Shown: positions 1,844 through 40,372 of the stretch, one piece after another
Layout: each line of letters opens with the position of its first letter
Position numbering within the stretch: position 1 is the stretch's first letter
From: an uncultured Planctomycetaceae bacterium
Lineage (GTDB): Bacteria; Planctomycetota; Phycisphaerae; SM23-33
Assembly (NCBI GenBank): GCA_964401385.1
Contig: CAYNYF010000009.1
Coordinates: 461-64,460 of the forward strand
Reading direction: 5' to 3'
Length of the DNA: 64,000 nt
Notes under the pieces: generated by a model
What the model was told of the DNA's origin: nothing
The model's input: only the letters and a program-made list of their open reading frames with translations
Database searches by the model: none
Translations under genes and position numbers: made by a program

Positions 1844-1881
1844 CTATGGGTTACCTATGCCGTGGCGCGCGGAGCGGTCCG
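1844..1881 (-). promoter_or_regulatory. Conserved bipartite motif copy 1 (CGGACCGC-N11-CGGCATAGGTAACCCATAG on minus strand)
   Basis: Conserved blocks identical to the copies at 18167-18204 and 40335-40372; ends 24 nt before the gpW-like start. Confidence 0.75.
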
Positions 1882-2041
1882 GCAAAGGCCGGAGATCTGC
1901 TCAGGCCCCCAAGATCGTTCCGCATCTAGAACCTGCGCAGCTGCCAGCCCGCGCGGACAGCCGTCAAGGAGCGTTGATCAGCGTGCGTAGACCGAGGACA
2001 ATCCAGCGACCGGCGACCGTGCCGGGGGAGGAGGTGGCGAC

Positions 2042-2827
2042 ATGGCGGCGAAACGGTACACGGGACCCATCTTCATTCAGCCGGTCGAGTGGATCGACGC
2101 ACAAATGGCCATGGCCGGCCGGAAAAGCGGGCCCCCAACATATCGGTCGGCGGTCGAGTACCTGTGTACTCCGTGCCAGGGGCACAAGCCTGAGGATCTG
2201 CTCAGAAGGTACGAGGAGATCTCGGCTAACACGACGAGGATCTGCCACGCTCCGGGGAAGGGGGAGATCCTGCAATCCATCTTTTGGCCGCTTCGCCACG
2301 CTCGATCTGCGTACGTCCTGGCGGACTACCTGGCAACGATAGCTCTGTGTGGGGTTGTCTGTGAGGTACTCACATTGCTCTTGTTCGAGATGCGCCCGGT
2401 CACGATTGGGGGAAAACGGATGTCAAAGAGCCGCGAACGGCGGATCTTCGGCAAGAAGGTACGAGACCTGTCCCAGAGCCGGCGCATCGACCTACTGCAG
2501 GGACTGGGAGCGATAGGCGCTGATGCAGCCCGAAGCTTCGGCCGCGTCCGCGAGCTTCGGAACAAGCACATCCATGACTACCTCTCTTCCCACGAGGAAG
2601 CACAGCAGGACGCAGTAGAGGTTTACCGCTTGACCAATTCCCTGATCGTGGAGGCCCTGGGGTGTGGGTTCACTACCGGGGCTTTCACGTATAGTCCGGA
2701 TCTTTTCAACCTGCTGCTCCGCGAGGGTGTGCTGAAGGAATCTGACTTCGAGGACGTCGAGGAGGCTGATGCGGGGGCACAGAAGGACGATGGTCCAGAA
2801 GGGACTCGCCAGTCTCGTAGTCCCTGA
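2042..2827 (+). CDS. Counter-oriented moron, HEPN-like (DUF4145-like) protein
   Basis: 261 aa; YLATIALCGVVCE helix and RNKHIH (Rx4H) motif; inserted antisense in the late region. Confidence 0.6.
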   Translation: MAAKRYTGPIFIQPVEWIDAQMAMAGRKSGPPTYRSAVEYLCTPCQGHKPEDLLRRYEEISANTTRICHAPGKGEILQSIFWPLRHARSAYVLADYLATIALCGVVCEVLTLLLFEMRPVTIGGKRMSKSRERRIFGKKVRDLSQSRRIDLLQGLGAIGADAARSFGRVRELRNKHIHDYLSSHEEAQQDAVEVYRLTNSLIVEALGCGFTTGAFTYSPDLFNLLLREGVLKESDFEDVEEADAGAQKDDGPEGTRQSRSP

Positions 2828-2860
2828 TCGTCATCCTCCCAGCACCGGTACCCATCATCG

Positions 2861-3046
2861 TCAGCCGCCCGCCGGCCGCTCGTACGTCGTCATTCGCCGC
2901 CCGCAATGTCGGCACTCGCGACGGCGTAGCAGACGCCCGCCCGACGCTGGGCGGGTGTAGAGCACGCGGAAGTGGGCGCAGCCGCACCGGGGGCACTCCA
3001 GCCCGCGCTTCTTCGTCAGACTCTCGGCTCGGCCTGCCTTGGTCAT
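2861..3046 (-). CDS. Small Zn-ribbon protein (NrdR-N/Ogr-like)
   Basis: CPRCGC...RRRECRHCGRRMTTYE; ATGA overlap with the terminase stop. Confidence 0.8.
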   Translation of the reverse strand: MTKAGRAESLTKKRGLECPRCGCAHFRVLYTRPASGGRLLRRRECRHCGRRMTTYERPAGG

Positions 3047-5307
3047 CGCCTGGTCCTTTGCAGCTCCGAGAGCTTGACCCGCTGCCGCACCGGCGCCGCC
3101 TTGGCGTCGGTGCCCGGTAGGACCGCGCCCTGGATGGAGGCGGCCACGGCGCAGCCGACCAGGCAGTCCAGCCAGTGGTTATCGGGGCCGCCGGCGCGGA
3201 GCTTCCATTCGTCCACCACCCGCCCCCGGGCCTCGGTCCGCACGCGGTACTCGGCGGTGAGGTGGTCGGCCAGGAGCTGGTTCTCGGCGGGCTTGCGGCC
3301 AAACAGCGACAGGCACCCCGGATCGCCCATGGCCACGGCCAGGCGGGCCTGGATGAAGCTCTTCCAGTGGTTCGTGTCGATCAGCACGTGGCGGACTTGG
3401 CGGCGGCCGGCGATGTTGGGGATGCGCCAGTGATGGCCGACGCGCTCGCCGCGCTTCCGCTTGTACTCGCTGAAGGGCACGCTGGAAGCCCCGACGTAGC
3501 GCCCGTGGCTAGGCATGACGATGGCAGAATGCCCGCTCTGGCGGCAGAACTGGTACACCACGTCCGTGCTCTGGCCCCAGTTGGCGTCGATCAGGCAGCG
3601 CTCGATCTGCAGCTCCGCGCCGTCGTCGCGCCGCCAGCGGCGTGGCAGGTATTCGCCGGTCAGCTTCTCCAGCCCGGCGTAGATCGAACCTTCCAAGCCC
3701 GTCCCGGGCGCTGCCCGGCCGAGGGTCTTCTGGACGTCCCGCAGCGTGAAGTACGCCCGCCGCTGGTCGGGATACGTGCCGTAATCGACCACGTAGCCGG
3801 TGAATTCGTCCTCCCAGGCGACCACGACGTGGAAGAGCAGCTTGGCTTGGACGTCGATGAACATCGTCAAGTGGCTGGCCCCGATTGGTATCTCGCCACG
3901 GGCGTAGCCGTTGACCTTGGCGGCGATCTGATCGGCGGTGAGCTGGTCGGGGTCGCCTTCATCCTCCGGCAGCGGTTCGTTCTGGTATTCCGCCCAGAAG
4001 GCCCGCTCGTCCTGGAGTTTGAGGTCCATCGCGTGCTGGATGGCCGACAGCTCGTCGGCGTTGTGCCGCTGCGGCCAGGCGACGGCAGCGCCGGCGTCCA
4101 TCTCTTGGCGATGGGCGTGGTAGAACTCAGTGGCCTCGCGGCCGTCGCCGCCGTTGCGGAAGCTGTCGGCGCGGACCTGGGCGTAGCGCTGCCAAAGCTT
4201 CTCGTTGGTCGGGAACGCATACACGAGCTTCGTCCGCTCACCTTGCCAGGCGGGGTGTTTGTCGCGGTCGAGGATCTGGTCGGCCATGTCGCCGGGGCGG
4301 ATCACCGTGCAGGGCATGATCCCCGAGATCTTCTCGCCGGGGCCGGCGAGGTTCAGGATCGCGCCGTTGAGGGTTTCCATCCGGGACCGGACCTGCTGGT
4401 CGCTACGGGCGGACTCATCGGTCTGCGGGTCGTCCAGGACCACTAGCGAGGGCCGCACCGCCCGGCCGTCGGCGCGCTTGAACTTCATGCCGCGGATACG
4501 GCTCTCGATGCCGGCGACGCGGATGATGGCGCCGGAGGCCTTGGAGTCAGGGATCGTCGGCAGGACGATCTCGTCGGCCGTCCAGACGATCCGGGTGTGC
4601 CGGCCGTTGCAGAGCTGGCCCTTGGCGCGGTTGTGAATCCGCTCCAGGGCGTGGATGGGGTAGACGGCCTCGGGGTAGTCCTCCAGCAACCGGTCGTTGG
4701 TCTCAAACTCGACCTTGATGCTCTCCAGCATGCTGCGGGCGTGCCCGGCGTCCGAGCCGATCAGACAGACGAACTCGCGGGCGCCGGTCAGCATCGCCCA
4801 GATGCAGGCCGTCTCGGCCAGCGTGGTCTTGCCGCTGCCGCGCGGCATGGCCATGGCGAACAGCCCGCCCCGCAGCACGGCCTGCTCGATCCTGGCAATG
4901 ACCTTCAGGTGGTCGTCCGACCACGGCAGGCTGAAGGTCCGGGGGAAGTACGCCTCGCAGAAGAACCGGAAGCTCGTCTCCGCGCCGGCCTTCCGTTCGG
5001 GGTCGACCACCTCGGGGATCTCGCCGATGTCCCGGCCGATGGCCGACAGCTCCGCGTTGCGGGCCCGGGCGGCCTCCTTGACCGCCTCGTAGTCGGCAGG
5101 CTCCTTGGCGGGTGCGGGGTTGTGGCGCAGCCACGCCAGCCAGGCGGCGTAGCGCAGCAGGTCCACGCGCTTCTCGTCGCCGATGCGGTAGCCGGCGCGG
5201 TTGCGGTGCCGGCGGAGTTGGCGCTCGCTGATGACCTCGCCCAGCGGCGTGGAGTTGAGCATCCGCGTCAGCATCGACGGCCGCAAGCTGCGGGGGTCAA
5301 TCGCCAC
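3043..5307 (-). CDS. Terminase large subunit (gpA-like C-terminal nuclease, N-terminal extension)
   Basis: Walker A AMPRGSGKTT, Walker B VVLDDPQ, nuclease motifs FIDVQ, LIDANWG, NHWLDC; upstream of portal. Confidence 0.9.
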   Translation of the reverse strand: MAIDPRSLRPSMLTRMLNSTPLGEVISERQLRRHRNRAGYRIGDEKRVDLLRYAAWLAWLRHNPAPAKEPADYEAVKEAARARNAELSAIGRDIGEIPEVVDPERKAGAETSFRFFCEAYFPRTFSLPWSDDHLKVIARIEQAVLRGGLFAMAMPRGSGKTTLAETACIWAMLTGAREFVCLIGSDAGHARSMLESIKVEFETNDRLLEDYPEAVYPIHALERIHNRAKGQLCNGRHTRIVWTADEIVLPTIPDSKASGAIIRVAGIESRIRGMKFKRADGRAVRPSLVVLDDPQTDESARSDQQVRSRMETLNGAILNLAGPGEKISGIMPCTVIRPGDMADQILDRDKHPAWQGERTKLVYAFPTNEKLWQRYAQVRADSFRNGGDGREATEFYHAHRQEMDAGAAVAWPQRHNADELSAIQHAMDLKLQDERAFWAEYQNEPLPEDEGDPDQLTADQIAAKVNGYARGEIPIGASHLTMFIDVQAKLLFHVVVAWEDEFTGYVVDYGTYPDQRRAYFTLRDVQKTLGRAAPGTGLEGSIYAGLEKLTGEYLPRRWRRDDGAELQIERCLIDANWGQSTDVVYQFCRQSGHSAIVMPSHGRYVGASSVPFSEYKRKRGERVGHHWRIPNIAGRRQVRHVLIDTNHWKSFIQARLAVAMGDPGCLSLFGRKPAENQLLADHLTAEYRVRTEARGRVVDEWKLRAGGPDNHWLDCLVGCAVAASIQGAVLPGTDAKAAPVRQRVKLSELQRTRR

Positions 5308-5497
5308 CGGAGACCTCCCGAACGAGCCAGGCGGTGTAGTGGACGAGGTTGATCGTGCCGTCGGCGTTGGCCGGGGCGCCGGCGTCGATGTCCGCCCGGA
5401 GCATCGCCTCGGTGATCCGCCGGCCGCCGGCCGCCGAGAGCACCTTCGCGGCCTGGGCCACCGTCAGCGCCGTCAGGCTGGGCGCGGGGTCGCTCAC
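5297..5497 (-). CDS. Small HTH-like protein, candidate terminase small subunit
   Basis: GTG at 5497 with AAGGAG; LTVAQAAKVL...DGTINLVHYTAWL; overlaps the terminase start. Confidence 0.65.
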   Translation of the reverse strand: MSDPAPSLTALTVAQAAKVLSAAGGRRITEAMLRADIDAGAPANADGTINLVHYTAWLVREVSGGD

Positions 5498-5694
5498 GGG
5501 CAGCTCCTTCGGCCGCGGGGGCGTCGGATTCCGGCCAGAATCTTCGCCACATGCCGTAAGCATAGATGTGTGCGACAGTTACGGCCGAAAGATTCCGCCG
5601 CCGGGGGCCGGAATCCCCTTCCCATGTGCCGCCAGTCGAGCAAACATGTCACCAGAAGAATGGAATGCAAGCCATGAACCAGAAAGGACTTACG

Positions 5695-5907
5695 ATGAAG
5701 AAGGCCAAGAGCAACACCGAGACGCACGAGTGGCTGACGGCCCGCGGCCGCGACGGCCGGCGCCGTATCGAGAAGCTGGGCTGGAAGCGATTGGCCCGCA
5801 TCTACCTGGCCGCGAGGCCCGGCAGCGCCATCCGCAAGGCCATCAACGCCGAGGCCCGTCGGTGCGGCTACACGCCGCGGGTCATCCTCGCCCTCAACGC
5901 CGAATGA
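5695..5907 (+). CDS. Hypothetical basic protein, first gene of the plus-strand small-gene operon
   Basis: ATG with AAGGA upstream; codon usage like neighbouring genes. Confidence 0.7.
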   Translation: MKKAKSNTETHEWLTARGRDGRRRIEKLGWKRLARIYLAARPGSAIRKAINAEARRCGYTPRVILALNAE

Positions 5908-5919
5908 AAGGAGCGAACC

Positions 5920-6207
5920 GTGAGAATCACCAGCATCGAACTGGCGGGAAGCAGCAGGACCACGCTTCGTGACGGGACGCCGGGCCTGCCCCGGGCCTTC
6001 GCCAAGGTCAGCCGCACCACCGACGCCCAGTACATCGAGGTCACGATCCTCCGGCCTGGCGGCGAGCGGAAACACATGATCAGGACCGACTGCGAGGAAG
6101 ACATCCGGTCGATGGCCGAGTGCTTGCAGAACCAGCTCGACGGCTACGACGGGACCAACAGCGAGATCGAGGAGTACGTCCGCGTGCTCCAGTACTTCGC
6201 CGACTGA
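5920..6207 (+). CDS. Hypothetical protein
   Basis: GTG start with AAGGAG; 95 aa. Confidence 0.75.
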   Translation: MRITSIELAGSSRTTLRDGTPGLPRAFAKVSRTTDAQYIEVTILRPGGERKHMIRTDCEEDIRSMAECLQNQLDGYDGTNSEIEEYVRVLQYFAD

Positions 6208-6219
6208 AAGGAGACCATC

Positions 6220-6399
6220 GTGAACGAGATCGACATCGAAACCATGCTGTACGAGCTGCTCCAGGACGAGGAGGCCGCGCCGGAGGTCGCCAAGGTCAGA
6301 ACCTTCGAAGAGGCCGGCGTGCTGACCAGCAACCGCGGGGTGGTGGTTCGGACCGACGACGGCAGCGAGTTCCAGGTCGCCATCGTCCAGAGCCGCTGA
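6220..6399 (+). CDS. Hypothetical acidic protein (59 aa, below the ORF-track cutoff)
   Basis: GTG with AAGGAG; MNEIDIETMLYELLQDEEAAPEVAKVRTFEEAGVLTSNRGVVVRTDDGSEFQVAIVQSR. Confidence 0.75.
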   Translation: MNEIDIETMLYELLQDEEAAPEVAKVRTFEEAGVLTSNRGVVVRTDDGSEFQVAIVQSR

Positions 6400-6414
6400 A
6401 GAAGGAGACGGACC

Positions 6415-6693
6415 ATGAAGAGCAAGCGCAAGCGACCGGAGACGTACGAGGCCGAGCACGGCGGCAAGAAAGTCCGTGTGACGGTACCCGAGGCCATCGA
6501 CGAGGGGAACCTCGCCGCGGCCCTCAAGGACAACCTCAGCCCGCAGGCCGTAGCGGCCATCGCCGCCTACCTGACGGCCGCGCGGGTCAAGAACCGCCAG
6601 GTGCAGCGCCAGATCGAGTGGTTCGCCGGCATGCTCGTAGACATGCTCGGCGTGGACGAGTTCAACCGCCTCGTTGACGAGGTGGGACTGTAA
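6415..6693 (+). CDS. Hypothetical protein
   Basis: ATG with AAGGAG; 92 aa. Confidence 0.75.
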   Translation: MKSKRKRPETYEAEHGGKKVRVTVPEAIDEGNLAAALKDNLSPQAVAAIAAYLTAARVKNRQVQRQIEWFAGMLVDMLGVDEFNRLVDEVGL

Positions 6694-6732
6694 GGAACCG
6701 GCCCCATGGGCCCCAGAGCAAAGGAGCAAGTC

Positions 6733-7293
6733 ATGAAGAAGGCAGATGTGAAGGTCGGCACCGTGTATTCCGCCAAGGTGAGCGGCAACATCGCCCCGGT
6801 CAGGATCGACCGGGAGAACCCCCGCGGCGGCTGGGACGGCACGAACCTGAAGACCAAGAAGGCCGTCCGCATCAAGTCCGCCCAGCGGCTGCGGGGCAGG
6901 GCCGCGACCTGGCCGGGCAAGCCAGCGGCCAAGTCCGCAGCCAAGCCCGCCGACGGCGCGGCCAAGACGGCCCCGACCGCCAAGAAGAAGCGCGGCGGCA
7001 TCACCGAGGCCACGAAGGCCGACGCGGTCAACGCCGCCATGCAGGCCGTCGCCGCCGACAAGAAGAAGCGGGCCAGCGGGCTGGACGCCGCGGCGAAGGT
7101 CCTGGCCGAGGCCGGCAAGCCGATGAACACCAAGGAGATGGTCGAGCAGATGCTCGCCAAGGGTCTGTGGAAGACCAACGGCAAGACCCCGGCCGCCACG
7201 ATCTACGCCGCCATCATCCGCGAGATCGCCACGAAGGGCGACCAGGCCCGCTTCCGCAAGGTCGGGCGGGGCAAGTTCGAGTTGGCCCGCTGA
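6733..7293 (+). CDS. Winged-helix (HARE-HTH-like) protein with Lys/Ala-rich linker
   Basis: SGLDAAAKVLAEAGKPMNTKEMVEQMLAKGLWKTNGKTPAATIYAAIIREI...RFRKVGRGKF resembles HARE-HTH/RpoE-delta N-domain; AAGGAG RBS. Confidence 0.75.
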   Translation: MKKADVKVGTVYSAKVSGNIAPVRIDRENPRGGWDGTNLKTKKAVRIKSAQRLRGRAATWPGKPAAKSAAKPADGAAKTAPTAKKKRGGITEATKADAVNAAMQAVAADKKKRASGLDAAAKVLAEAGKPMNTKEMVEQMLAKGLWKTNGKTPAATIYAAIIREIATKGDQARFRKVGRGKFELAR

Positions 7294-7301
7294 GAGCGCC
7301 A

Positions 7302-8687
7302 TCAACCCGCCGCCTCCTCCACCCCGGTCGCCCCGGCCGGGGTGCTCTTCGGCAACTCCTCGGCCTCGGCCGCGATCCGCTCGGCCTTCTTGCCGGTGAA
7401 CTCTTCCCAACGCTGGACGATCACGTCGCAGTACAGCGGGTCCAGTTCCACCAGAAACGCCCGCCGCCCCGTCTGCTCGCAGCCGATCAGCGTGCTGCCG
7501 CTGCCGCCGAACAGGTCCAGGACGTTCTCGCCCGGCAGCGAGCTGAACTGAATCGATCGGACGGCCAGTTCGACGGGCTTCTCGGTCAGGTGGACCATCG
7601 CCTGTGGGTTGACCTTCTTGACGTGCCACAGGTCCGTGGCGTTGTTGGGGCCGTAGAAATTGTGGCCTGCACCCTCCTTCCAGCCGTAGAAGGCCAGTTC
7701 GAAGCATCCCATCATGTCCTTGCGGGTCAGCACCGGGTGCTGTTTGTCCCAGACGATGCCCTGGCTGAAGTACAGGCCGGCCGCCTTGAGCGGCGCGGGG
7801 TAGTTGCCGAGGTTCGCGTAGCCGCCCCAAATGTAGAACGACCCGCCCGGCTTCAGGACGCGTGAGGCGTTGGCGAACCACGCCAGCAGCATCTCGTCGA
7901 AGTCCTCGGCTGAGACGAAGTCATTCTCCAGCGGCCGGTCCTTGGGGCGCATCTTCTTGCGCGCCTTCTTCGGATCGGTCACGCCGCGGGCTACGTCGAA
8001 GCCCTGGTGGTGCATCTTGCCCGAGAGATCGGGGTAGGAGCTGTTGCCGGCCGCGATGGCCGTGCTGCTGCGCGGCTCGACCCTCACGTTGTACGGCGGA
8101 TCCATGTTGATCAGGTCGATGGTCGCCCCGGCCAGTAGCCGGTCGACGTCGGCCTGGCTGCCGCTGTCACCGCACATCAGCCGGTGCTCGCCCAGCAGCC
8201 AGATGTCGCCGCGCCGGGTGACCGCCTCGTCGGGCGGTTCGGGAACGGAATCCGGGTCGGTCAGGCCGGGGTTGACCTCGCCGTCGAGCAGCTTGGCCAG
8301 GGCCTTTTCGTCGAAGCCCAACAGGCTCAGGTCGTAATCGGCGCCCCGCAGGTCCTTCAGCTCGATCGGCAGCAGGTCGAAGTCCCACTCGGCCAGGCTG
8401 GCGGTCTGGTTGTCGGCGATCCGGTAGGCCTTGGTCTGCTCGGGCGACAGGTCGGTGGCCACGTGGACGGGCACCTTGGCCAGGCCCAGCTTTTTGGCCG
8501 CCTTCCAGCGGGTGTGGCCGACGATGATCACGCCGTCGCCATCAACCACGATGGGCTGGCGGAAGCCGAACTCCCTCAAGCTGGCCGCGACGGCGTCTAC
8601 GGCCTGATCGTTGACGCGCGGGTTGCCTTCGTACGGGCGGACGGCGTCGATGGGGCGAAGCTCCACGTCGAACGTCTTGGTGGTCAT
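7302..8687 (-). CDS. ParB N-terminal domain fused to N4/N6 DNA methyltransferase
   Basis: PYEGNPRVN, FGFRQPIVVD, GHTR (ParB); DPPYN, HLTEKPVEL, LDLFGGSGST (beta-class MTase). Confidence 0.92.
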   Translation of the reverse strand: MTTKTFDVELRPIDAVRPYEGNPRVNDQAVDAVAASLREFGFRQPIVVDGDGVIIVGHTRWKAAKKLGLAKVPVHVATDLSPEQTKAYRIADNQTASLAEWDFDLLPIELKDLRGADYDLSLLGFDEKALAKLLDGEVNPGLTDPDSVPEPPDEAVTRRGDIWLLGEHRLMCGDSGSQADVDRLLAGATIDLINMDPPYNVRVEPRSSTAIAAGNSSYPDLSGKMHHQGFDVARGVTDPKKARKKMRPKDRPLENDFVSAEDFDEMLLAWFANASRVLKPGGSFYIWGGYANLGNYPAPLKAAGLYFSQGIVWDKQHPVLTRKDMMGCFELAFYGWKEGAGHNFYGPNNATDLWHVKKVNPQAMVHLTEKPVELAVRSIQFSSLPGENVLDLFGGSGSTLIGCEQTGRRAFLVELDPLYCDVIVQRWEEFTGKKAERIAAEAEELPKSTPAGATGVEEAAG

Positions 8688-9031
8688 GGGTGCACCTCCG
8701 TGTGCGCTTTGGACCAGGCGACGACCTCATGGCAGAGGCCGATGAACTCCTGGCTGGTGAGAGATCCCTTGGCCCGATTCACATCCTTGTGCAGCACCTG
8801 GGTGTTCTCGATCACGTGTTCGCCGCCGAGGCGGACGGGCACGACGTGGTCAAGGGCGGCCGTCTCCGGCGTCAGCTCGCGGCCCGTCAGGGCGCAGCGG
8901 TACTGCTGGTGCTCCAGCAGGCACAGCACGTTCTCGGTGGAGACAGGGCCATGCGGAGCGGCGGCACCTACCAGCTGCGCTTGCGTTTGGGGACGTACCG
9001 GCTGCCGGCCGACACGCGCCGCGTGGCCCAC
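8684..9031 (-). CDS. HNH endonuclease (start uncertain; in-frame GTG at 9031, ORF open to 9319)
   Basis: CALTG...ALDHVVPVRLGGEHVIENTQVLHKDVNRAKG; ATGA coupling with the methylase. Confidence 0.75.
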   Translation of the reverse strand: MGHAARVGRQPVRPQTQAQLVGAAAPHGPVSTENVLCLLEHQQYRCALTGRELTPETAALDHVVPVRLGGEHVIENTQVLHKDVNRAKGSLTSQEFIGLCHEVVAWSKAHTEVHP

Positions 9032-9315
9032 AGGTGCCAGTCGCTTCGCCTCGCGTGATTCGCTCTTGTGGCGGCGATCCCTACCGCCAGGCGGGCGAAT
9101 ACCCGCCATGTCGGCCTGGGAGTGGCTCGGGCGTTTCCTTTCGCGGGCGGGCGGCTGAGACGGATACGCCAGCCCTGGACCATGCAGTGCGCGGCCCGGG
9201 ACCACGGGTCGCGAAGCATCAGGCCGTTGTGGTGGTCGGTTCGCAGCCGGCTGACGAGTTCCGACGCCCGCGCCTTCCATGCATCTGCCATCGCTCTCGG
9301 TTGTGTTGTGTCCAT
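8968..9315 (-). CDS. Hypothetical basic protein
   Basis: 115 aa Trp/Arg-rich ORF with AGGAG upstream; overlaps the HNH frame. Confidence 0.5.
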   Translation of the reverse strand: MDTTQPRAMADAWKARASELVSRLRTDHHNGLMLRDPWSRAAHCMVQGWRIRLSRPPAKGNARATPRPTWRVFARLAVGIAATRANHARRSDWHLWATRRVSAGSRYVPKRKRSW

Positions 9316-9427
9316 GCATTCTGATCTCCTGGAAAAAACCGGACAGCCGAAACCAACTCTGCTATTGGGCGCGGCTGTTCCCGCGGCCGTCTCCTGCCCC
9401 GTCCGGCGGGAAGTACCTAATCTCAGG

Positions 9428-9696
9428 TTTCACCTTTCACCCCCCTCGCGCATACACACGCATATTCGCGCGGGCGGGCGTCGCGCGAGGGGGTGGGGGT
9501 GAATGGGTGAAATAAGAAGAGAGAGTTGTTGTTTTCCTTTATATATTGGGCCTTTCCGCCGATCTCACGTTTCACCCTGTGGGGGTGAAACGTGGGTGAA
9601 ATGAGAGAAACCTGACCGGCCGTTCGTGCCATTTCTGTCGTCCGGAGGCTGTTCACGTTTCACCCCCGTCGCTGGTTTCACTGTCACGTTTCACCC
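9428..9696. repeat. Iteron-like TTTCACC / CACGTTTCACCC cluster with AT-rich tract; candidate phage replication origin
   Basis: CACGTTTCACCC at 9566, 9654 and 9685 and inverted at 9583; further TTTCACC/GGTGAAA at 9428, 9435, 9506, 9595; AT-rich 9511-9547. Confidence 0.7.
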
Positions 9697-12319
9697 CGCG
9701 CGCCAGGCGATACGACCGAGGCGGCGAACCCGCTCTGGGCACGGTGACGATCTCGATGTCGCCTTGCTGGGCCAGGGTCTCGATGAGCACGCTGAAGGTC
9801 TTGGCGTCCGTTTTCATGCGCTTGAGCAGGACGCTGTGGGGAAGCTCGTTGCCCGATGCGCCGCGCAGCTTCTCCAGCAGCTTGAGACACTCGGCATGGA
9901 ACGGGTTATCCGCGACGTGCGAGGCGGCCATGAACAGCATGCGCCGGGTCTGGTGCATGACGAACCGCGAGGCCCACTGCACGGCGGCCAGGCCGATGCG
10001 CGGGGCCTCGTGGTTCTCGCTGACCGCGTGCAGCAGCGCCAGTTTGCGGACCTGCTCGCTGACGCGGCCCCAGACGGTCGTGCCCACCGCATCGCAGGCC
10101 TGCTCGGCCTTGGCGTACTCGGCCTCTGCTTCCAGACGCGTCTCGACCAACAGCCGCTTGGCTTTGTCGCTGTGTTCGACAATGGCCGGGACCGGGTGCC
10201 AGTTCTCCAGATTGCCCGTACCGGCCCGGTAGTCCGCCCACCACTGCGCGATTGCGAGCACGCGAGCGGGCAGGTCGCGGATGCTCGGCTCCTGCCCCGG
10301 CGCTCGCGGCCCGGCTTCGAGGATGATCATGCGAGCGAAGAAGCCGTTGGTCAGCATCCGCTCGCTGAGGGCCTGGTAGTAGTGGTTCGGGATGGCGGTG
10401 CCGTAGATGACCAGGCACGGCTGGTCGATGACGCCGGGCGACTCCTTGCCCGCCTTGCGCCGCATGGGATAGACACTGTTGGCCGACGAGTACATCGTCA
10501 GCATTGTGCCCATGATCGCTTCGTGCCGGGCGTCCTTGGCCTTGTTGATCGACTGGAGCATGCCGTCGATCTCGTCAGTCTGGAACAGCATTGTCGGCGT
10601 CTGGAACAGCGCGTCCTGGATGCCCTCCCCGCTGGCGAAGTGCAGGCCGAGGCTCTCGCCCAGGCCGACCGCGTGGATGATCCGTGAGTTGACCTTGCGG
10701 GACTGGTCCTTGCCCGCCCCGGAATGCGCCAGCCCCAGCAGGTACAGGTTCGTGCGGTTGTCGCCGGCGTCGCGCACCTTGCGCCCGGCCAGAAACGCCT
10801 GCAGCGCCAGCGCGCCGCCGAACGCCATCATCTGGTTCGGGTACGGCGCGACGGTGAGGGTGTGGTCCATGACCTCGCCGATGAAGCCCGGCGCACGCAG
10901 CATCTCGGCAGGGAGCGGCCCGGGGTCGGCCATCTCTGGCGCTGGTGCGGCTTCTCCGTCGGACATTGCCATTGTCTCGCCGAGAGGGGCATTGTCCGAC
11001 GGACAATCGCCGGGTGCGGCGGACATTCGCACAATGGCCGAGATGTCCGGGCCGTCGGCGCTGTCCGCCAGAGAATCGGCCCCGAAGCCGCGTTCTCGCA
11101 GAGAGCGTGCGGCCTGTTCGAAATCCCCGCCGCAGGCCAACAGGGCGTAGACGGCGAAGGGCGAGTACGCCCGGTTCGGCTCGAAGGGCGCGGCGTTGGA
11201 GCTGAAGACGTAGAAGACGCCGTCCTTGAGCGTAGCCGACCATCCGGAGGCCTTGCCCGGCCGGCGCCAGTACTCGTTCTGGCCCGCCCGGGCCAGCGCC
11301 CAGCCGGCATTCTCCAGGACGGCTCGCACATCTCCGCGGGTATTGAAGTCATCGCCAGGACGGTCGGTATTCTCTGGTCGACAACCCGCCTGTCCGACAG
11401 ACAGCGACCCTGTCTGCCCCACAGCGGCATTGTTCGACGGACAACTGCCGGTGTGCGGATTGTCTGCCGCACATCCGCATTGTGCGGCCGATGATGGCGC
11501 TCTCTGGCCGAGAGCGGCGCTGTGCGACCGACAATCGCCATTGTGGGCGTTGTCCGCGGACAAGCCGCCCTTGTGGGCCGACAATGCCGTCCGCTGGCCG
11601 ACCTTCGCCGACAACGGCGGACAGTTTGCCGCAGGGCCGCGGGCGTGGGCGTCGCCCCCAGGGCCTTCCTGCCCGCCGGCTGGCCCACCAGGCGACCGCT
11701 CGGCCCCTTTGGCCACACGGGCCAACGTGGGGCCAACGGGGGCGTCCCCGGTGGGCCCGTCCACCACCGGCGGGACGTACTCGTTGAGCTCCCAGGCGGC
11801 CCGAAGCAGCATGTCCCGCTCGGCGGCGGTCAGGACGGGCGGGTCGCACAAGTCGCCCTGGATCAGCTCGTAGCCGGCGGTGGGCGCGCACAGGAACAGG
11901 CCGCCCTCGCCTCGGGTCTCGATGAGCGTGACGATCCGCCCGCCGGCCTCGCGCTGGGCCAGCTTGAGGTTGCCGCAACCTGAAGCCTCGTGGCGGTAGG
12001 CGGCGTGGCGGCCGTCGGATTGGGTCTTGGACAGGACCAGCCGCTCCAGCAGGCCCGGCGCGGCCGCGCGGACCTTCTCGCACCAGGCCTCGAACAGCTC
12101 CCCGCCGCCATCGAAGTCGATCAGCTCGACGTTGCTCGAGACGGCGCCGGCGATGATGCACAAGGCGTCGGGCCCGTTGGCGAACCACGCCTCGACCTCC
12201 GCCTGCGTCGGCAGCCGCGACTGAAAGCCCTTCCAGGCGATGGTCGGGCGCTTCTGGTCCCGCCGGGCAGGCAGGACGCACAGGCCGGCGTCGAGATATT
12301 GCCGGGCCGCGTCCTTCAT
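9653..12319 (-). CDS. Bifunctional primase/polymerase (Prim-Pol) fused to DUF3987-like helicase domain
   Basis: N-terminal YLDAGLCVLP..KRP..WK, LIDFD, ETRGEGG; C-terminal GLAHSGAGKD, QTDEIDG, GFFARM. Confidence 0.85.
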   Translation of the reverse strand: MKDAARQYLDAGLCVLPARRDQKRPTIAWKGFQSRLPTQAEVEAWFANGPDALCIIAGAVSSNVELIDFDGGGELFEAWCEKVRAAAPGLLERLVLSKTQSDGRHAAYRHEASGCGNLKLAQREAGGRIVTLIETRGEGGLFLCAPTAGYELIQGDLCDPPVLTAAERDMLLRAAWELNEYVPPVVDGPTGDAPVGPTLARVAKGAERSPGGPAGGQEGPGGDAHARGPAANCPPLSAKVGQRTALSAHKGGLSADNAHNGDCRSHSAALGQRAPSSAAQCGCAADNPHTGSCPSNNAAVGQTGSLSVGQAGCRPENTDRPGDDFNTRGDVRAVLENAGWALARAGQNEYWRRPGKASGWSATLKDGVFYVFSSNAAPFEPNRAYSPFAVYALLACGGDFEQAARSLRERGFGADSLADSADGPDISAIVRMSAAPGDCPSDNAPLGETMAMSDGEAAPAPEMADPGPLPAEMLRAPGFIGEVMDHTLTVAPYPNQMMAFGGALALQAFLAGRKVRDAGDNRTNLYLLGLAHSGAGKDQSRKVNSRIIHAVGLGESLGLHFASGEGIQDALFQTPTMLFQTDEIDGMLQSINKAKDARHEAIMGTMLTMYSSANSVYPMRRKAGKESPGVIDQPCLVIYGTAIPNHYYQALSERMLTNGFFARMIILEAGPRAPGQEPSIRDLPARVLAIAQWWADYRAGTGNLENWHPVPAIVEHSDKAKRLLVETRLEAEAEYAKAEQACDAVGTTVWGRVSEQVRKLALLHAVSENHEAPRIGLAAVQWASRFVMHQTRRMLFMAASHVADNPFHAECLKLLEKLRGASGNELPHSVLLKRMKTDAKTFSVLIETLAQQGDIEIVTVPRAGSPPRSYRLARGVKRDSETSDGGET
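11357..11626. repeat. Three degenerate 90-bp tandem units inside the primase gene
   Basis: 30-aa periodicity (CPPLSAKVGQR.. / CRSHSAALGQR.. / CPSNNAAVGQT..); (C/G)GACA cores at 11439, 11529 and 11619; boundaries approximate. Confidence 0.65.
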
Positions 12320-14046
12320 CAGAACGGTACCTCGCAGTCATCCGGCGGCCAATCCGAAGGCACTCCTTCGAGGTCGCTCTCGTCGCTGCTGTCCAGCCGC
12401 GTCGGGATCGGTCCCAACTGGTAGTCCGTGATCCGGTCGAACTTCTCGCCGGCAACGCTGCGGATGGTGATGGCCTTCGTCTCGGCGATCCCGCCGGCCT
12501 GGCAGATCTCGACGGCCTCTTCGGCCGTCTCGGGGACAGGTTCATTCGACCGCGCGCGCCACCACACCTCGGCCTTGGCCCGGGCGTAGCCGGTGTGCTC
12601 GAAGCACACCCACTCGCTGCGGTAGTCGCTGAAGCCGACGCGGTAGTCGACGCGCATGCTGCGCGGGTGATCTTCGGGGGCACCGCGCTTGACGTGGACG
12701 GTGTAGTAGACGTCGGTGACCTCGTACTCCGTCTCGGTGACTTCGCCGGAGAGGATGCTGTCGGTGGAGGCCTGGCGGTCGTGGCGCTGCCGCTCCGGCG
12801 GCGGGAACTCGTAGCCGCACTCCGGGCACGTGGCGTAGGCGGCGTGGATCACCGCTTGGCACTGCGGACACTCCTTGGCCGGGGCCTCGCCTCCGGCGCC
12901 ACTGCGGTCTTTGACCTGAAGATCATCCACCGGCCCGTGGCGCAGGATGTTGCCGCCGAAGTCCAGGACCAGGCAGTCGGCCTTGCCGGGGTGGAGCCGG
13001 AAGCCCCGACCGACCATCTGGTAGTACAGCCCCGGCGAGTTGGTCGGGCGCAGCAGGGCTACGCAGTCGATGTTCGGCGCGTCGAAGCCGGTGGTCAGGA
13101 CGTTGACGTTGACCAGATACTTCAAGCCGCCGTCGCGGAAGCGTTTCAGTGTCTGGGCCCGGTCAAAGGCCAGCGTCTCGCCGCAGACGAAGCCGCACTT
13201 CTGGCCGAGCTCGGCGAGCACGCGCTGAACGTGCTGGGCATGCTGAATGCCGGCGGCGAAGATCAGTACTGAGTGGCGGTTGGCGGTGTGCTCGACGATC
13301 TCCCGGCAGGCGTCCCGAACGAGCGAGTCATCGTCCATCAGGGCCTCGACCTCGCCGGCGATGAACTCCCCGCCCCGGATGTGCAGGCCTGAGGTGTCCA
13401 CCTTGCGGCGGCCGGCCTTGGTCTTGAGCGGGCACAGGTAGCCCTGGACGATCAGCTCGCGGACGCTGACCTCGTAGCAGACCTCGTTGAGCAGGTTGCC
13501 GGCCCCGCAGATCATCCCCGTGGTCATCCGGAACGGCGTGGCGGTCAGGCCGATCAGGCGGACGTTGGGATTGACCACCCGCGCTTCGGCCAGGAAGGTT
13601 CGATACATCCCGTCCCCGTCGGGCGGGATCATGTGCGCCTCGTCAATCAGGACCAGGTCGAAGCGGTCCAGCTCCGCCGCCCGGCGGTAGACGCTCTGGA
13701 CGCCGGCGACGATGATCAGGTGCTCGGTGTCGCGGCTCTTGAGGCCCGCCGAGTACACGCCGATCTGCCGCCACAGATCCGGGGCCATGGCGTGGAGTTT
13801 CTCGACGGCCTGTTCCAGCAGCTCCTTGACGTGGGCCAGGATCAGGACGCGCCCGTTCCACTGGCCGACCGCGTCGCGGCAGATCGTGGCCATCACGGGC
13901 GTCTTGCCCCCGGCGGTCGGGATCACCACGCAGGGGTTGTCGTCGCGGGTGCGAAGGTGCTCGTAGACGGCCCCGACCGCCTCCGTCTGGTACGGGCGCA
14001 GCGTGATGGTCGGTGCCGGTGGTGGTGACAGCAGCGATTCGGTCAT
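12319..14046 (-). CDS. SF2 DEAH helicase with Zn finger (RadD/YejH-like)
   Basis: LRPYQ, PTAGGKT, DEAH, GLTATP, LTTGFDAP, QMVGRGFR, CPQC/CPEC; ATGA-coupled start at 14046. Confidence 0.92.
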   Translation of the reverse strand: MTESLLSPPPAPTITLRPYQTEAVGAVYEHLRTRDDNPCVVIPTAGGKTPVMATICRDAVGQWNGRVLILAHVKELLEQAVEKLHAMAPDLWRQIGVYSAGLKSRDTEHLIIVAGVQSVYRRAAELDRFDLVLIDEAHMIPPDGDGMYRTFLAEARVVNPNVRLIGLTATPFRMTTGMICGAGNLLNEVCYEVSVRELIVQGYLCPLKTKAGRRKVDTSGLHIRGGEFIAGEVEALMDDDSLVRDACREIVEHTANRHSVLIFAAGIQHAQHVQRVLAELGQKCGFVCGETLAFDRAQTLKRFRDGGLKYLVNVNVLTTGFDAPNIDCVALLRPTNSPGLYYQMVGRGFRLHPGKADCLVLDFGGNILRHGPVDDLQVKDRSGAGGEAPAKECPQCQAVIHAAYATCPECGYEFPPPERQRHDRQASTDSILSGEVTETEYEVTDVYYTVHVKRGAPEDHPRSMRVDYRVGFSDYRSEWVCFEHTGYARAKAEVWWRARSNEPVPETAEEAVEICQAGGIAETKAITIRSVAGEKFDRITDYQLGPIPTRLDSSDESDLEGVPSDWPPDDCEVPF

Positions 14047-15476: not shown

Positions 15477-15478
15477 CC

Positions 15479-15877: not shown

Positions 15878-15888
15878 CGGCTCCTGCC

Positions 15889-16347: not shown

Positions 16348-16351
16348 GGGG

Positions 16352-17086: not shown

Positions 17087-17258
17087 CTGCGGTTCCTTGT
17101 TGCTGGTGGTTCTTGTCATGTCGTTCGGCCGGGCCGGGGTCCCAGGCCGCGCTCCCTCGCGGCCCGGAGGCCCCGGTCGCCGGTCACCTCACGATGCGCC
17201 CGGGCGGGCGGCCGTCGCGTTTGATGGACCCGCCGCAAGCCGCCCGGGCGCGGAATGC

Positions 17259-18092: not shown

Positions 18093-18166
18093 GGTCTCGA
18101 TGTCCTCTGCCGGGCTCCCCGGAGACCGCGGCGTCCGTGCCGCGGCCCCCGGTAGCTTGCCGCCCT

Positions 18167-31713: not shown

Positions 31714-31716
31714 ACG

Positions 31717-37579: not shown

Positions 37580-37978
37580 TCATCGTGCCCGGCCTAATGT
37601 CCGCTTCCAGGCCTCTCGCTGCTTACGCCAATCGACGATGGCCGTGACCGGCCGGAGATGGCGCTCCGTGACTGCGTCATGGCCCGATTCAACCGGCGGG
37701 AGGTGGAGCAGTTCCTCCTGGATGTCGGGGGCGAGGTGCAGCAGGTTCATGATCTGCGTCATGCGCGGCTGGGTGACGTGCGTCAGGCGGGCGAGTTCGG
37801 AAAGGTCGGAGACCTTGCCCTCCCGCAGCAGGCGGTCGAAGCGGATGGCCAGGGCCATGAGCTTGCTGACGCGGGGGACACGGCCTGCGGGCCCTGACGT
37901 ATCGGGCGGCGGGCCGGGCTTGGCGATCTTCCGGCCGGACTTCATGGCGAAATGTATCTGTTTCGTCACGGTTGGCAT
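37580..37978 (-). CDS. Recombinase-associated small HTH protein
   Basis: RVPRVSKLMALA...SELARLTHVTQPRMTQIMNLLHLAPDIQE; overlaps the recombinase end. Confidence 0.75.
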   Translation of the reverse strand: MPTVTKQIHFAMKSGRKIAKPGPPPDTSGPAGRVPRVSKLMALAIRFDRLLREGKVSDLSELARLTHVTQPRMTQIMNLLHLAPDIQEELLHLPPVESGHDAVTERHLRPVTAIVDWRKQREAWKRTLGRAR

Positions 37979-39549
37979 ACGGCGGCCTCCTCGGTGTACT
38001 TCATCAGGGCTCGGATGTTCGTTGGGTGGAAGGTGACGGACACAGTACCGGCCTCCCCGTCGTACTCAACGGCCGACAGGAGCAGATTCAACATGCGGGC
38101 CTGTTCGCGGGGAGCCAGGCTCTCCCACAGGCCGTCGAAGTCGGCGAAGGCCTCCTCAGCCTCAGCCTTCGAGATGGTCTGGCCCTCCAACTCAGCAATC
38201 CGCGCCTCCATCTCCGGCACACGCCGGTCGGCGTCCGACATGCGTTCGTGTAGGTCGGCCATCCGAGCGGTCGCATCGGAGCTCGTCTCGCCGGCGAGGG
38301 CCAGTTGCTGAAGCTCGTGGTGGTGGCGCTTCCTTTCTCGCTGGGTGTCCTTGAGATCGCGGCGGACGGCCGCCAGTTCGGCCTCGATGGCGGCGTCGGC
38401 CTCGCCGACGACCCGGGCCAGCAGGTCTGCGTCGCTGGCCAGGGCGCGTACCTCGTCGACCACCACACGCTCGATCTCGGCAGCGGGCAGCGTGCCCGCG
38501 GGGCAGGTGTCGTGGCCCTTCTTGATGGCGCTGGTGCAGCGGTAGTAGCGATAGAACCTGCCGCGGCCGTTACCGCTGAATGTGTGGGTCATCGCGGAAC
38601 CGCAGCACTTGCACCTCAGCAGGCCGCGCAGCAGCGCCCCGTACTTGTTGCGAGCCCCCGCGCCTCCGGCGCGCCCATTGAGCTTGAGCCGCTTCCGAAC
38701 CTGGTCGAACAGGTCCTGGTCGATGATCGCTTCGTGCTCGCCCTCATACAGCTCGCCCTTGTGACGCGTCTTCCCGGTGTAGACCGGGTTGGTCAGCAGG
38801 ACGTACAGCGATGACTTGTCGAACGGCCGGCCACCGAGCTTCTTGCCCTTCCTGGTGATGCGGCGCTTGTTCACCCAGCCCCGTCGGGCGAGCTCTTTCA
38901 CCACTGGCAGCAGCGACTCGCTCACGAGATACAGGCGGAACATCTCGCGGACGCGGGCCGCTTCCTTGGCGTTGACTACCAGCCGCGGGCTCGGGCCGGT
39001 TCGGTCGACGTCGTAGCCCAGCACGGGCATGCCGCCGATCCACTTGCCCTTGCGGGCCTGGGCGGCAAGCTTGTCCCGGATGCGTTCGCCGATGATCTCA
39101 CGCTCGAACTGGGCGAAGGACAGCAGGATGTTCAGCGTCAGGCGGCCCATCGAGTGGGTTGTGTTGAACTGCTGGGTGACGGACACGAACGACACGCCGT
39201 GCCGCTCGAACGTCTCCATGATCTTGGCGAAGTCCAGCAGCGACCGGCTAAGGCGGTCCACCTTGTAGACGACGACGCAGTCGACCTCGCCCCGCGCGAT
39301 GGCCCGCAGCAGCCGTTCCACGGCCGGGCGGTCCATGTTGCCCCCGGAGAAGCCGCCATCGTCGTAGCGGTCTGGGAGGGCCTCCCAGCCTTCGGCCTTC
39401 TGGCTGACGATGAAGGCCTCGGCGGCTTCCCGCTGGGCGTCGAGGGAGTTGAAGTCCTGGTCCAGGCCTTCCTCGGTGCTCTTGCGGGTGTAGATCGCAC
39501 AGCGGACGGCTGCCTTGCCCGGCTTGGCGTTCTTCGTGCCCCGTGTCAT
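37966..39549 (-). CDS. Large serine recombinase (integrase)
   Basis: AIYTRKS catalytic Ser, DGGFSG, DRLSR, recombinase domain NPVYTG, Zn ribbon CKCCG...YYRC, coiled coil. Confidence 0.95.
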   Translation of the reverse strand: MTRGTKNAKPGKAAVRCAIYTRKSTEEGLDQDFNSLDAQREAAEAFIVSQKAEGWEALPDRYDDGGFSGGNMDRPAVERLLRAIARGEVDCVVVYKVDRLSRSLLDFAKIMETFERHGVSFVSVTQQFNTTHSMGRLTLNILLSFAQFEREIIGERIRDKLAAQARKGKWIGGMPVLGYDVDRTGPSPRLVVNAKEAARVREMFRLYLVSESLLPVVKELARRGWVNKRRITRKGKKLGGRPFDKSSLYVLLTNPVYTGKTRHKGELYEGEHEAIIDQDLFDQVRKRLKLNGRAGGAGARNKYGALLRGLLRCKCCGSAMTHTFSGNGRGRFYRYYRCTSAIKKGHDTCPAGTLPAAEIERVVVDEVRALASDADLLARVVGEADAAIEAELAAVRRDLKDTQRERKRHHHELQQLALAGETSSDATARMADLHERMSDADRRVPEMEARIAELEGQTISKAEAEEAFADFDGLWESLAPREQARMLNLLLSAVEYDGEAGTVSVTFHPTNIRALMKYTEEAAVCQP

Positions 39550-40049
39550 CGCTGCGTCCCAAGCCTGAAGAAGCGGTAGCCGTTGATGTGGCTGCCTGTG
39601 ATGGTTTTGGCCACGGCCGTCAGCGTCCGGTAACGGTCGCCCTCGTACTCGAAGTCGTCATCGAGCACGACCACGCGGTGCTTGCGGCCTTTGTACTCGC
39701 GGACGATGGCCGAGCCGGGCGTGGGAAGGCGGGGGTCTCTGGGCTTGGCCTCGCCGGCAGCGATGGGCCTCGTGACCGTCACCTCGTTACCCGTCTGCGG
39801 CGGGCAGACCATCGTGGGCGGGGCCATGACCCGGACCTCGGCGTCGTTGGCCAGATCGGCGGCCCGCCTACGGGCTCGTTCGGACAGGTCGCCCTCGGCG
39901 TTCGCCTGGATGCGCCAGGCGATCTTGCGGACGAGGTAGGCCCGGTGGCGCGTGCGGCACGGCTGGCCGTGGAGCTGCTCGTACCGCTCGGCCAGCTCGC
40001 ACGTGGCCATGCCGTCCAGGGCGGCGATTTGCGTCGCGACGTTGTTCAT
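39546..40049 (-). CDS. DUF2924 domain protein
   Basis: YLVRKIAWRIQA..EGDLS; PGSAIVREYKG...YRTLTAVAKTITGSHINGYRFFRL. Confidence 0.88.
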   Translation of the reverse strand: MNNVATQIAALDGMATCELAERYEQLHGQPCRTRHRAYLVRKIAWRIQANAEGDLSERARRRAADLANDAEVRVMAPPTMVCPPQTGNEVTVTRPIAAGEAKPRDPRLPTPGSAIVREYKGRKHRVVVLDDDFEYEGDRYRTLTAVAKTITGSHINGYRFFRLGTQR

Positions 40050-40091
40050 TCGTGTGGCTCCTTTCGTCAAGGTTCACCGAGACGCGGCCCG

Positions 40092-40301
40092 TTAACGCGC
40101 GGGTCGCGGAGCCACACTGAGCCTCGACGCCGTGGGACGCTCAAGCTCGTTCCGGCAAGCTTCTGAAACTGTTTTGGCGGCCTCCGGAGGGCCTGTTTGG
40201 CCTGCCCGCAAGCGTCGGAGCAGCCCCTGGGCGAGGATGCTCGCGATCTCGTCGCGGCGCTCTTCGGTGGTCATGCTCTCGGGGTCGGCGATGGCAACCA
40301 T
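40092..40301 (-). CDS. Small hypothetical protein of the DUF2924/recombinase module
   Basis: PESMTTEERRDEIASILAQGLLRR; AGGAG RBS. Confidence 0.7.
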   Translation of the reverse strand: MVAIADPESMTTEERRDEIASILAQGLLRRLRAGQTGPPEAAKTVSEACRNELERPTASRLSVAPRPAR

Positions 40302-40334
40302 GCGTGTGCTCCTGATGGCGATTCCGTTAGTCCT

Positions 40335-40372
40335 CTATGGGTTACCTATGCCGTTGGCGGGTGGGCGGTCCG
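40335..40372 (-). promoter_or_regulatory. Conserved bipartite motif copy 3
   Basis: CTATGGGTTACCTATGCCG-N11-GCGGTCCG; ends 33 nt before the 40301 start. Confidence 0.75.

Follow-up and report, generated by a model that had tools for sequence, protein, structure and literature searches.

The stretch of DNA analysed here (the window) comprises 64,000 nucleotides (nt) of the assembly GCA_964401385.1 (contig CAYNYF010000009.1, positions 461-64,460, forward strand) and carries a Phycisphaerae (Planctomycetota) prophage integrated beside a tRNA-Met gene. Three operons of this prophage, all on the minus strand, are each preceded by one copy of a 38-bp bipartite motif, and the element encodes a small sigma-70-family protein of its own that is probably the reader of these sites. 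The E operon consists of a small open reading frame (ORF) followed by genes for a DUF2924 protein, a large serine recombinase and a recombinase-associated protein (p132). The M operon encodes, in order, a PDDEXK exonuclease, AAA_24, RusA, DUF4406/DUF6378, a helicase, PrimPol, HNH, a ParB-methyltransferase, a 795-residue protein (p795) and the large terminase (TerL). The L operon opens with a short ORF and a lambda-family portal gene; the contig ends 460 nt beyond the start of the window, and the remaining morphogenesis and structural genes are therefore not on it. An earlier reading made from the letters alone (the sequence-only reading) had proposed that the motif marks a phage sigma regulon. 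Its labels for the portal, the exonuclease-to-primase run, Sigma70_r2, DUF2924 and the recombinase are supported by Pfam; its name gpW could not be confirmed, the ORF at 1622-1819 having no Pfam or PHROG match, and this gene is referred to below as the gpW-position ORF. Coordinates are collected in Table 1.

A bipartite motif before three operons

The three motif copies are exact and co-oriented, as first described. A pattern search for CGGACCGC-N11-CGGCATAGGTAACCCATAG (minus strand, up to 3 mismatches) returned three matches in the window (1844-1881, 18167-18204 and 40335-40372), with 0 mismatches over the 27 specified positions and in one orientation, and none of 100 dinucleotide-preserving shuffles contained a match. 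The intervening 11-nt spacers are all different and have nothing in common (TGGCGCGCGGA, CCGGCGACGGC and TTGGCGGGTGG on the plus strand). The copies had been placed 24-74 nt upstream of a module's first gene, and the measured distances from copy end to ATG are 24, 74 and 33 nt (ATGs at 1819, 18092 and 40301). Within the longer block, the CTATG repeat 11 bp apart and the pseudo-palindrome around GGTTACC are both directly readable in the window. A motif common in host regions would have spoken against a phage regulon, and such sites were not found: the 19-mer (up to 2 mismatches) has no site in the 4.06-Mb host assembly besides the three window copies, and the 16-mer (up to 1 mismatch) is present in 0/91 other genomes of the same family.

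Related prophages share this arrangement. Scans with a 26-sequence alignment of the sigma protein located 30 viral and 34 genome loci, 64 in total, the genome loci including three complete chromosomes, with family members that have detectable motif copies in those of L051 and L061 (codes beginning with L and G denote related loci and extended elements of this analysis); the single window sequence as query found no locus in viral contigs, where the alignment-based scans succeeded. At 62/64 loci a block of the form [GT]CATA[GA] is found between -60 and +90 nt, counted from where the sigma match ends, and one of the two other loci has no sequence after the sigma gene. The M site after sigma occurs in 47 distinct versions among these loci. 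Eleven elements were extended to 33-58 kb and compared by tblastn with the window proteins, giving 12 elements with the window. All have one gene order: small ORF-DUF2924-recombinase-p132, then, further on, sigma, exonuclease/AAA_24/RusA/helicase/PrimPol/ParB-methyltransferase/p795/TerL, the gpW-position ORF and the portal. The sequence-only reading had proposed a scan of related prophages for the motif, and the same three syntenic positions recur: the M block after sigma in 12/12 elements, the E block before small ORF-DUF2924-recombinase in 9/9 assessable elements (with the first G replaced by T in two of the nine, one of them, G105, reading TCATAA) and the L block before the gpW-position ORF in 9/11 assessable elements. 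GCATAG stands 41-44 nt before the start of the gpW-position ORF in the window, G092, G093 and G104, a distance sufficient to accommodate a short leader and its Shine-Dalgarno site.

The anatomy of the motif was derived from 26 distinct E and L copies, which are free of overlap with the sigma gene, and positions are given relative to the G of GCATAG. Information is concentrated in two peaks. The upstream peak spans -21 to -16, with C(-21) in 20/26, G(-20) in 25/26, C(-17) in 19/26 and A or C(-16) in 26/26 copies; the downstream peak spans -3 to +15 and reads ACGGCATAGGTAACC, followed by T(+14) in 20/26. The 12 positions between them are flat, at 0.4 bit or less. The family-wide signal is thus [C/T]GnnC[A/C]-N15-GCATAG-(5 variable)-C, of which the window version is CGGACC-N15-GCATAGGTAAC; the block centres lie about two helical turns apart, and ATAGGTAA is the sole local A+T-rich patch. 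Two information peaks separated by an uninformative gap of fixed length are promoter geometry, and the sites stand upstream of genes and point with them. The family-wide core is shorter than the two blocks given in the sequence-only reading. Neither the second CATAG nor the GGTTACC pseudo-palindrome is kept throughout the prophage family, and so they do not form an operator palindrome. A reading as sigma-54 sites (GG-N10-GC) was rejected by inspection of the letters, as this spacing is absent and the GGCAC of some L copies is not general. A search of five records with a very degenerate pattern was uninformative, control counts in whole genomes equalling or exceeding those observed.

Copies within one element share letters beyond the family core and differ in their spacers, a pattern that speaks for selection and against recent copying. 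CGGACC and CCATAG recur in each of the three window copies; all three copies of G104 read CGGGAC and GGTAACTA; G097, G098 and G099 have GGTGAC in the two copies detected, and it occurs at no other place in those genomes; and GCATAGCTCCCCC is common to the E and L copies of G103. A search of metagenomes for the window-type 18-mer gave 15 stretches, of which 12 look genuine, and CGGACC or CGGGCC stands at the same register in 9/12. Of the sequencing runs that a search matched to the locus, 24 were of DNA type and none was of RNA.

A matrix scan of the whole host assembly scored the window copies at 31.8-38.9 bits (38.9 for the L copy) and recovered a fourth, diverged copy, CGGGCG-N15-GCATAGATAACCCAATAGG, at position 358 of contig C61 (minus strand; 30.5 bits); the next-best site in the assembly reached 16.7 bits. 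This copy (locus L131) is 358 nt from a contig end and precedes an ORF that extends past the end of the contig; its neighbours are host-like (methyltransferase, ABC ATPase, MoxR, TatD). A second related element, broken into fragments, may have this copy as its first promoter. Sequences resembling the portal, DUF2924, recombinase, p132 and ParB-methyltransferase genes are found on contigs C126, C16, C59, C90 and C83.

The predicted prophage sigma factor and its candidate RNA leaders

Several lines of evidence support the claim that the element encodes its own sigma-70-family protein. The sigma-2 domain is recognised by Pfam (Sigma70_r2, E 7.1e-06, 26.2 bits against a cutoff of 24), with PF04542 precomputed for many homologues, and the protein matches PHROG sigma-factor families 1740 and 351. 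An AlphaFold2 (AF2) model has two helical domains with a mean predicted local distance difference test score (pLDDT) of 76, rising above 90 in the C-terminal helical domain (residues 151-211). The top Foldseek matches of this model are all sigma factors, led by SigH and SigL complexes of the extracytoplasmic function (ECF) class, at probabilities of 0.96-0.99 (0.99 for Mycobacterium tuberculosis SigH); the Foldseek E values are weak (~1e-2) and the template modelling (TM) scores ~0.25-0.35. Region 4 has no Pfam match in the window protein, and PF08281 is precomputed in 6 of the 120 homologues listed. Against the PDB sequences, the sole match of the sigma profile is Rhodobacter sphaeroides SigE (E 0.035), which places the protein remote from solved sigmas. 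Taken on these profile matches and the predicted fold, the product of 18167-18802 is a divergent ECF-like sigma factor with a sigma-2 and a putative sigma-4 domain. Its 144 homologues (E up to 1e-3) are typically 193 residues long, and the named ones belong to Planctomycetota, mostly Phycisphaerae; tblastn against 50,697 phage records gave no match. The most conserved stretch in the 26-sequence alignment, DPxRGNxEAFVT, lies in sigma-2.

This sigma is the only regulator adjoining the motif in every element examined. In the window the final three bases of the M copy, TAG, are the stop codon of the sigma ORF. The ORFs of the window and its two closest relatives read through to this TAG inside the motif (C-terminus ..GIGNP), and all other aligned sigmas stop 13 codons earlier than the window's; the overlap is incidental, being limited to these three. 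A pair of genes, p431-p328, lies upstream of sigma in 8/11 extended elements and is not found in the window. In L040 (6762-7385, minus strand), G093 and G104 only, the opposite strand encodes a second Sigma70_r2 protein that has an M78 (ImmA/IrrE-type) peptidase as its neighbour; the two lie a short distance upstream of the operon p431-p328-sigma. This region, absent from the window, looks like a lysogeny switch.

Synthesis of the sigma factor may itself be controlled. The leader upstream of the window gene combines a long near-perfect hairpin with a small one over the Shine-Dalgarno site, and the 189 nt from 18797 to 18985 have a minimum free energy of -86.3 kcal/mol (z -3.5), with 0/200 shuffles as stable. 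The window-type leader is kept in three relatives (L038, L039 and L031) with almost no covariation, and in the low-G+C locus L031 the long hairpin is followed by a T-run, which makes it terminator-like. A GTG-initiated N-terminal extension of the sigma ORF overlaps the window leader and is alignable in relatives; the region 18810-18914 may be coding or RNA structure. The leader is a candidate control point for sigma synthesis.

Most relatives have an intrinsic terminator and then a structured RNA of ~135 nt directly upstream of sigma (L016:7707-7918 and 19 other loci). Its closing helix covers the Shine-Dalgarno site. In the alignment of 20 relatives 51 pairs are formed, with 96% of cells paired against 34-41% in slid controls, and 14 pairs are changed on both sides, a number reached by 0/500 shuffles. 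The structure has no Rfam match and is a candidate new cis-regulatory leader for sigma synthesis, of another type than that of the window.

Hairpins are also predicted after the motif copies. The consensus of the GC-rich hairpin in the predicted M leader is CCUCGGAGGCC...GGCCUCCGAGG; it is kept in 23 aligned relatives, and 4 of its 10 pairs are compensatory. It could be a 5'-end stabiliser or a protein target. A short hairpin follows the L copy of the window, and other L copies have hairpins of different sequence in the same place, as read from the sequence.

A probable phage regulon and the competing explanations

What, then, would read the three sites? With a probability of roughly 0.6, the copies serve as promoters for a small phage regulon whose reader is the ECF-like sigma factor of the prophage itself. 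After induction or infection, host RNA polymerase would transcribe the operon that ends with the sigma gene, and sigma synthesis may be gated at the hairpin-rich leader just upstream of that gene. The protein would then bind the host core polymerase, its sigma-4 domain contacting the -35-like block (CGGACC in the window, [C/T]GnnC[A/C] family-wide) and its sigma-2 domain the extended -10-like block ACGGCATAGGTAAC, which starts 15 nt downstream and is the only A+T-rich patch amid DNA of 69% G+C. In this arrangement the most conserved part of sigma-2 would pair with the invariant GCATAG, and the sigma-4 helix would pair with the upstream block, both being more variable. Transcription would start ~10-12 nt after GCATAG, inside the CCATAG part, and near the second TAG of the window block if the TA of GCATAG corresponds to -12/-11; such a start would explain why conservation runs past a normal -10. 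The E transcript would carry the small ORF, DUF2924 and the serine recombinase for excision or integration, the M transcript the recombination and replication genes through to the large terminase, and the L transcript the gpW-position gene, the portal and the genes beyond, all three being co-directional. The single regulon of the sequence-only reading thus stands as a promoter-like set of sites before the recombinase, replication and head modules of a sigma-encoding element, on the strength of synteny, orientation, the bipartite profile and absence from host DNA; use of the set by this sigma is predicted.

Several observations weigh against the regulon. The L copy was undetected in G106 and G102C15, two of the 11 assessable elements. 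The matrix scores are partly circular. A 46-nt matrix built from 50 distinct sites, with which both strands of 601,201 bp were scanned at a threshold of at least 10 bits, gave 23 matches on the sigma (coding) strand and 0 on the opposite strand, a result that favours the regulon; it had been trained on sites that include the M copies of the scanned elements, so that the M scores are circular and the E and L orientation count is not. The five bases after GCATAG vary within G100/G101 (ATAAC, GGAAC, GTCAC), G102 and G105, and the 19-bp identity in the window therefore exceeds the family-wide signal. The L copy of L007 and the low-G+C relatives L023 and L031 keep GCATAGGTAAC without a CGG block. 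GCATAG is, moreover, unlike both TATAAT and the CGT of ECF -10 elements. Lastly, the pairing of sigma-4 with the upstream block, which speaks for the regulon, is suggestive: among sigmas with SWRQ in the sigma-4 helix the upstream block ends in AC or GC in 10/10 and in CA in 0/10, and with other sigmas it ends in CA in 32/36, but the sigma tree holds only two independent R-to-W changes (one on well-supported branches), with which the covariation cannot reach significance (sign test, 0.05), and CGGTGC also occurs in L copies of some SRRQ elements.

The blocks could alternatively be sites of another phage or host regulator acting at host-sigma promoters, with the phage sigma-like protein otherwise employed. 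Well-known examples of phage late activators, which bind immediately upstream of late operons, are RinA/ArpU and Mu C (PMC3152322), and conserved proteins without assigned function, p431 and p328, are encoded in the sigma operon of 8/11 elements. The window, G097, G106 and G102C1 nevertheless have the motif without p431 and p328. The 19 bp shared by the window copies exceed the length of a -10 element and contain a direct CATAG repeat and the pseudo-palindrome, and element-specific conservation extends downstream of GCATAG; family-wide, however, repeat and palindrome are lost and only GCATAG plus AC is kept. Two blocks at a constant distance, their centres about two helical turns apart, suit a sigma factor better than they would a dimeric operator; beside them no host-type -35/-10 can be seen, and the motif is absent from host DNA. 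On this evidence another regulator is an unlikely reader of the sites. Action after initiation, in which the copies load a Q-like antiterminator (the sigma-like protein working on polymerase that has paused) or act as put-like or processing RNA elements for read-through of the following hairpins, has in its favour that a hairpin follows each copy, that the M hairpin recurs in 23 relatives with 4/10 pairs compensatory and the L hairpins recur in the same place with differing sequence, and that the genes from E to L are all co-directional, making read-through control conceivable. The Q21 fold is, in addition, related to region 4 of ECF sigmas (bioRxiv 10.1101/651190). Yet the hairpins have no U-tracts, the two blocks are not mutually complementary, and no Rfam family is matched. 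The block sequence is invariant and does not co-vary, which is a pattern of protein-DNA recognition, and the protein has a sigma-2 domain above the Pfam cutoff and whole-chain structural matches to sigma factors. Such a mode of action is regarded as improbable.

It is scarcely credible that the copies are recombination or packaging sites, i.e., targets of the serine recombinase or the terminase. The E copy does immediately precede the recombinase operon, ~325 nt from the tRNA-Met at the end of the prophage, and the L copy lies between the terminase and portal genes, but the M copy is linked to neither enzyme, recombination between three direct internal repeats would delete the replication and cargo genes, and diverged elements retain these three positions in their interior, with the sites always pointing with transcription, 24-74 nt before start codons. 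Attachment (att) sites of a serine recombinase were rejected on similar grounds, since the three co-oriented copies are internal and only the E copy is near the tRNA end.

An extension of the sigma-read regulon is tentative and rather doubtful. It holds jointly that sigma factors and promoters co-evolve as lineage-specific 'dialects' and that sigma synthesis is gated by a structured RNA leader hiding the ribosome binding site. Features of such dialects may be the -35 endings CA, GC/AC and CC, which accompany R/W changes and insertions in the sigma-4 helix, and the lineage-specific letters after GCATAG; the RNA leader could be a riboswitch-like or protein-sensed switch for the lysis decision. 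If such dialects existed, co-resident prophages would be transcriptionally insulated from one another, and their orthogonal sigma-promoter pairs would amount to a natural library. A different fourth copy and fragments of a second related element, both present in the host assembly, have a bearing on this point.

Relation to known systems and further prophage features

To our knowledge, almost nothing is known about transcription signals and phage biology in Planctomycetota. ECF promoters have the geometry GGAAC-N16-17-CGT. The sites described here resemble these group 4 promoters in having two short blocks and a rigid spacer, the distance from the GGAC/GGGC core to CATAG being 16 nt, and differ in the longer downstream block (GCATAG and ~6 nt), which is unlike CGT. 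No anti-sigma gene was identified, and the protein matches region 2 only in Pfam.

Several phage systems offer closer comparisons. Xpf of the PBSX prophage of Bacillus subtilis is described as a sigma-2/sigma-4 group IV protein tied to late functions (PMC10141391) and is, like the protein predicted here, a small two-domain prophage-encoded sigma. It differs from the protein of the window in its host (Firmicutes rather than Planctomycetota) and has no detectable sequence relation to it; the candidate regulon here also spans the recombinase operon and the replication module, and the promoter consensus is different and new. SPO1 gp28 and gp33/34 and T4 gp55 are phage sigmas that redirect the host core polymerase to phage-specific promoters (PMC3152322; PMC13401047), and the likeness to the circuit proposed here lies in a phage sigma with private promoter sequences that are not read by the host sigma. 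SPO1 and T4 are, however, virulent phages with successive sigmas, and T4 gp55 reads a -10-only motif of 8 bp, whereas the present phage is temperate and has a single conserved sigma and a two-block motif at the start of three operons. RinA, ArpU and Ltr are small proteins of temperate Gram-positive phages, resembling sigma region 4, that act upstream of the leading gene of the morphogenesis operon to activate it; RinA-type genes lie directly before the terminase small-subunit gene, and in the account of their authors the products are activators, not sigmas (PMC3152322). In contrast, the protein described here adds a sigma-2 domain, is encoded before the replication module and has at least three candidate cognate sites.

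Together, the motif and the sigma suggest a phage transcription circuit that has not been described before and belongs to a familiar kind. New are the host phylum, a sigma lineage without a match in phage records, the consensus, and the apparent inclusion of the recombinase and replication operons; a literature search of one library, covering titles and abstract openings, returned no sigma regulon described in planctomycete phages. Phage sigmas with their own promoters have long been known, so the advance is one of breadth and utility, not of principle. It consists in a testable promoter consensus, [C/T]GnnC[A/C]-N15-GCATAGGTAAC, paired with a compact sigma of 193-211 residues, in the map of a widespread Phycisphaerae prophage family with conserved gene order (64 loci, three complete chromosomes among them), and in a simple circuit that may link excision, replication and morphogenesis through a single phage sigma. 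Confirmation would make orthogonal expression parts available in a phylum for which genetic tools are few, and would supply a first regulatory model for planctomycete temperate phages.

Table 1. Features of the prophage in the window; positions are counted from the first letter of the window.
Feature	Position	Strand	Basis or remark
L copy, late promoter candidate	1844..1881	-	CGGACC 1881-1876, GCATAG 1860-1855; 24 nt before ATG of gpW-position ORF
M copy, middle/replication promoter candidate	18167..18204	-	CGGACC 18204-18199, GCATAG 18183-18178; 74 nt before exonuclease ATG
E copy, recombinase-operon promoter candidate	40335..40372	-	CGGACC 40372-40367, GCATAG 40351-40346; 33 nt before small-ORF ATG
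Phage sigma-70-family gene	18167..18802	-	211 aa from GTG at 18802; longest ORF to 18859 (230 aa)
Window sigma leader	18810..18914	-	Long near-perfect hairpin 18914-18867; small hairpin over Shine-Dalgarno site 18825-18810
GC-rich hairpin in predicted 5' leader of M transcript	18117..18152	-	~25-30 nt after M copy; no U-tract
Short hairpin GGAGGGCACCCTCC	1831..1844	-	Starts at last base of L copy; by sequence reading only
tRNA-Met, likely integration site and prophage end	40696..40770	-	Adjoins E copy; Rfam tRNA match
E operon	37580..40301	-	Pfam/PHROG; gene order kept in relatives
Small ORF of E operon, 69 aa	40092-40301	-	
DUF2924	39546-40070	-	Pfam
Large serine recombinase	37966-39549	-	Pfam
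Recombinase-associated protein (p132), 132 aa	37580-37978	-	
M operon	3043..18092	-	Pfam; synteny; no further motif copy inside
Exonuclease-to-PrimPol run	from 17259-18092 down to 9653-12319	-	Pfam
Large terminase (TerL)	3043-5307	-	
L operon start	165..1819	-	gpW-position ORF and portal
gpW-position ORF, 65 aa	1622-1819	-	Conserved between TerL and portal
Lambda-family portal	165-1622	-	Pfam
Type I restriction-modification, hsdM	35101-37179		Defence cargo block
Type I restriction-modification, hsdS	32505-33827		Defence cargo block
Type I restriction-modification, hsdR	26891-29911		Defence cargo block
Shedu SduA	33824-35104		Defence cargo block
DruA	25667-26818		Defence cargo block
HerA/NurA	22648-25697		Defence cargo block
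DuOB and two DUF488 proteins			Within defence cargo block

The order of tRNA and then E copy is repeated in the relative L016. At the gathering score of Rfam 15, tRNA is the only match in the window and in four relatives. Between the recombinase and sigma operons lies a cargo block of lower G+C content (~21745-37179) that is packed with defence genes; the cargo of relatives differs here, as with the M78 peptidase and second sigma-like gene of L040. The three window proteins preceding sigma (398, 286 and 175 residues) have no family match and no tblastn match in the 11 extended elements. TTGCGT-N18-TATACT, noticed by eye before the gene of the 398-residue protein, was considered as a sigma-70-type promoter and dropped, scoring 8/12, and a sigma-70-type scan of 17000-23000 found 1 site against 0.7 expected.

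The interval between the terminase gene and the L copy measures 1.1 kb in the window and only ~300 nt in relatives. It is filled by a plus-strand ORF of 261 residues (2042-2827) with weak DUF4145 and HEPN matches, and the corresponding region of G096 has a reverse-oriented motif copy (L077). A box, GTTCTAGATGCGGAAC, stands at 1917..1932 (minus strand), ~57 nt upstream of the GCATAG of the L copy, and G092, G093 and G104 have similar boxes in the equivalent position; the box is possibly an extra regulator site or a packaging-related site.

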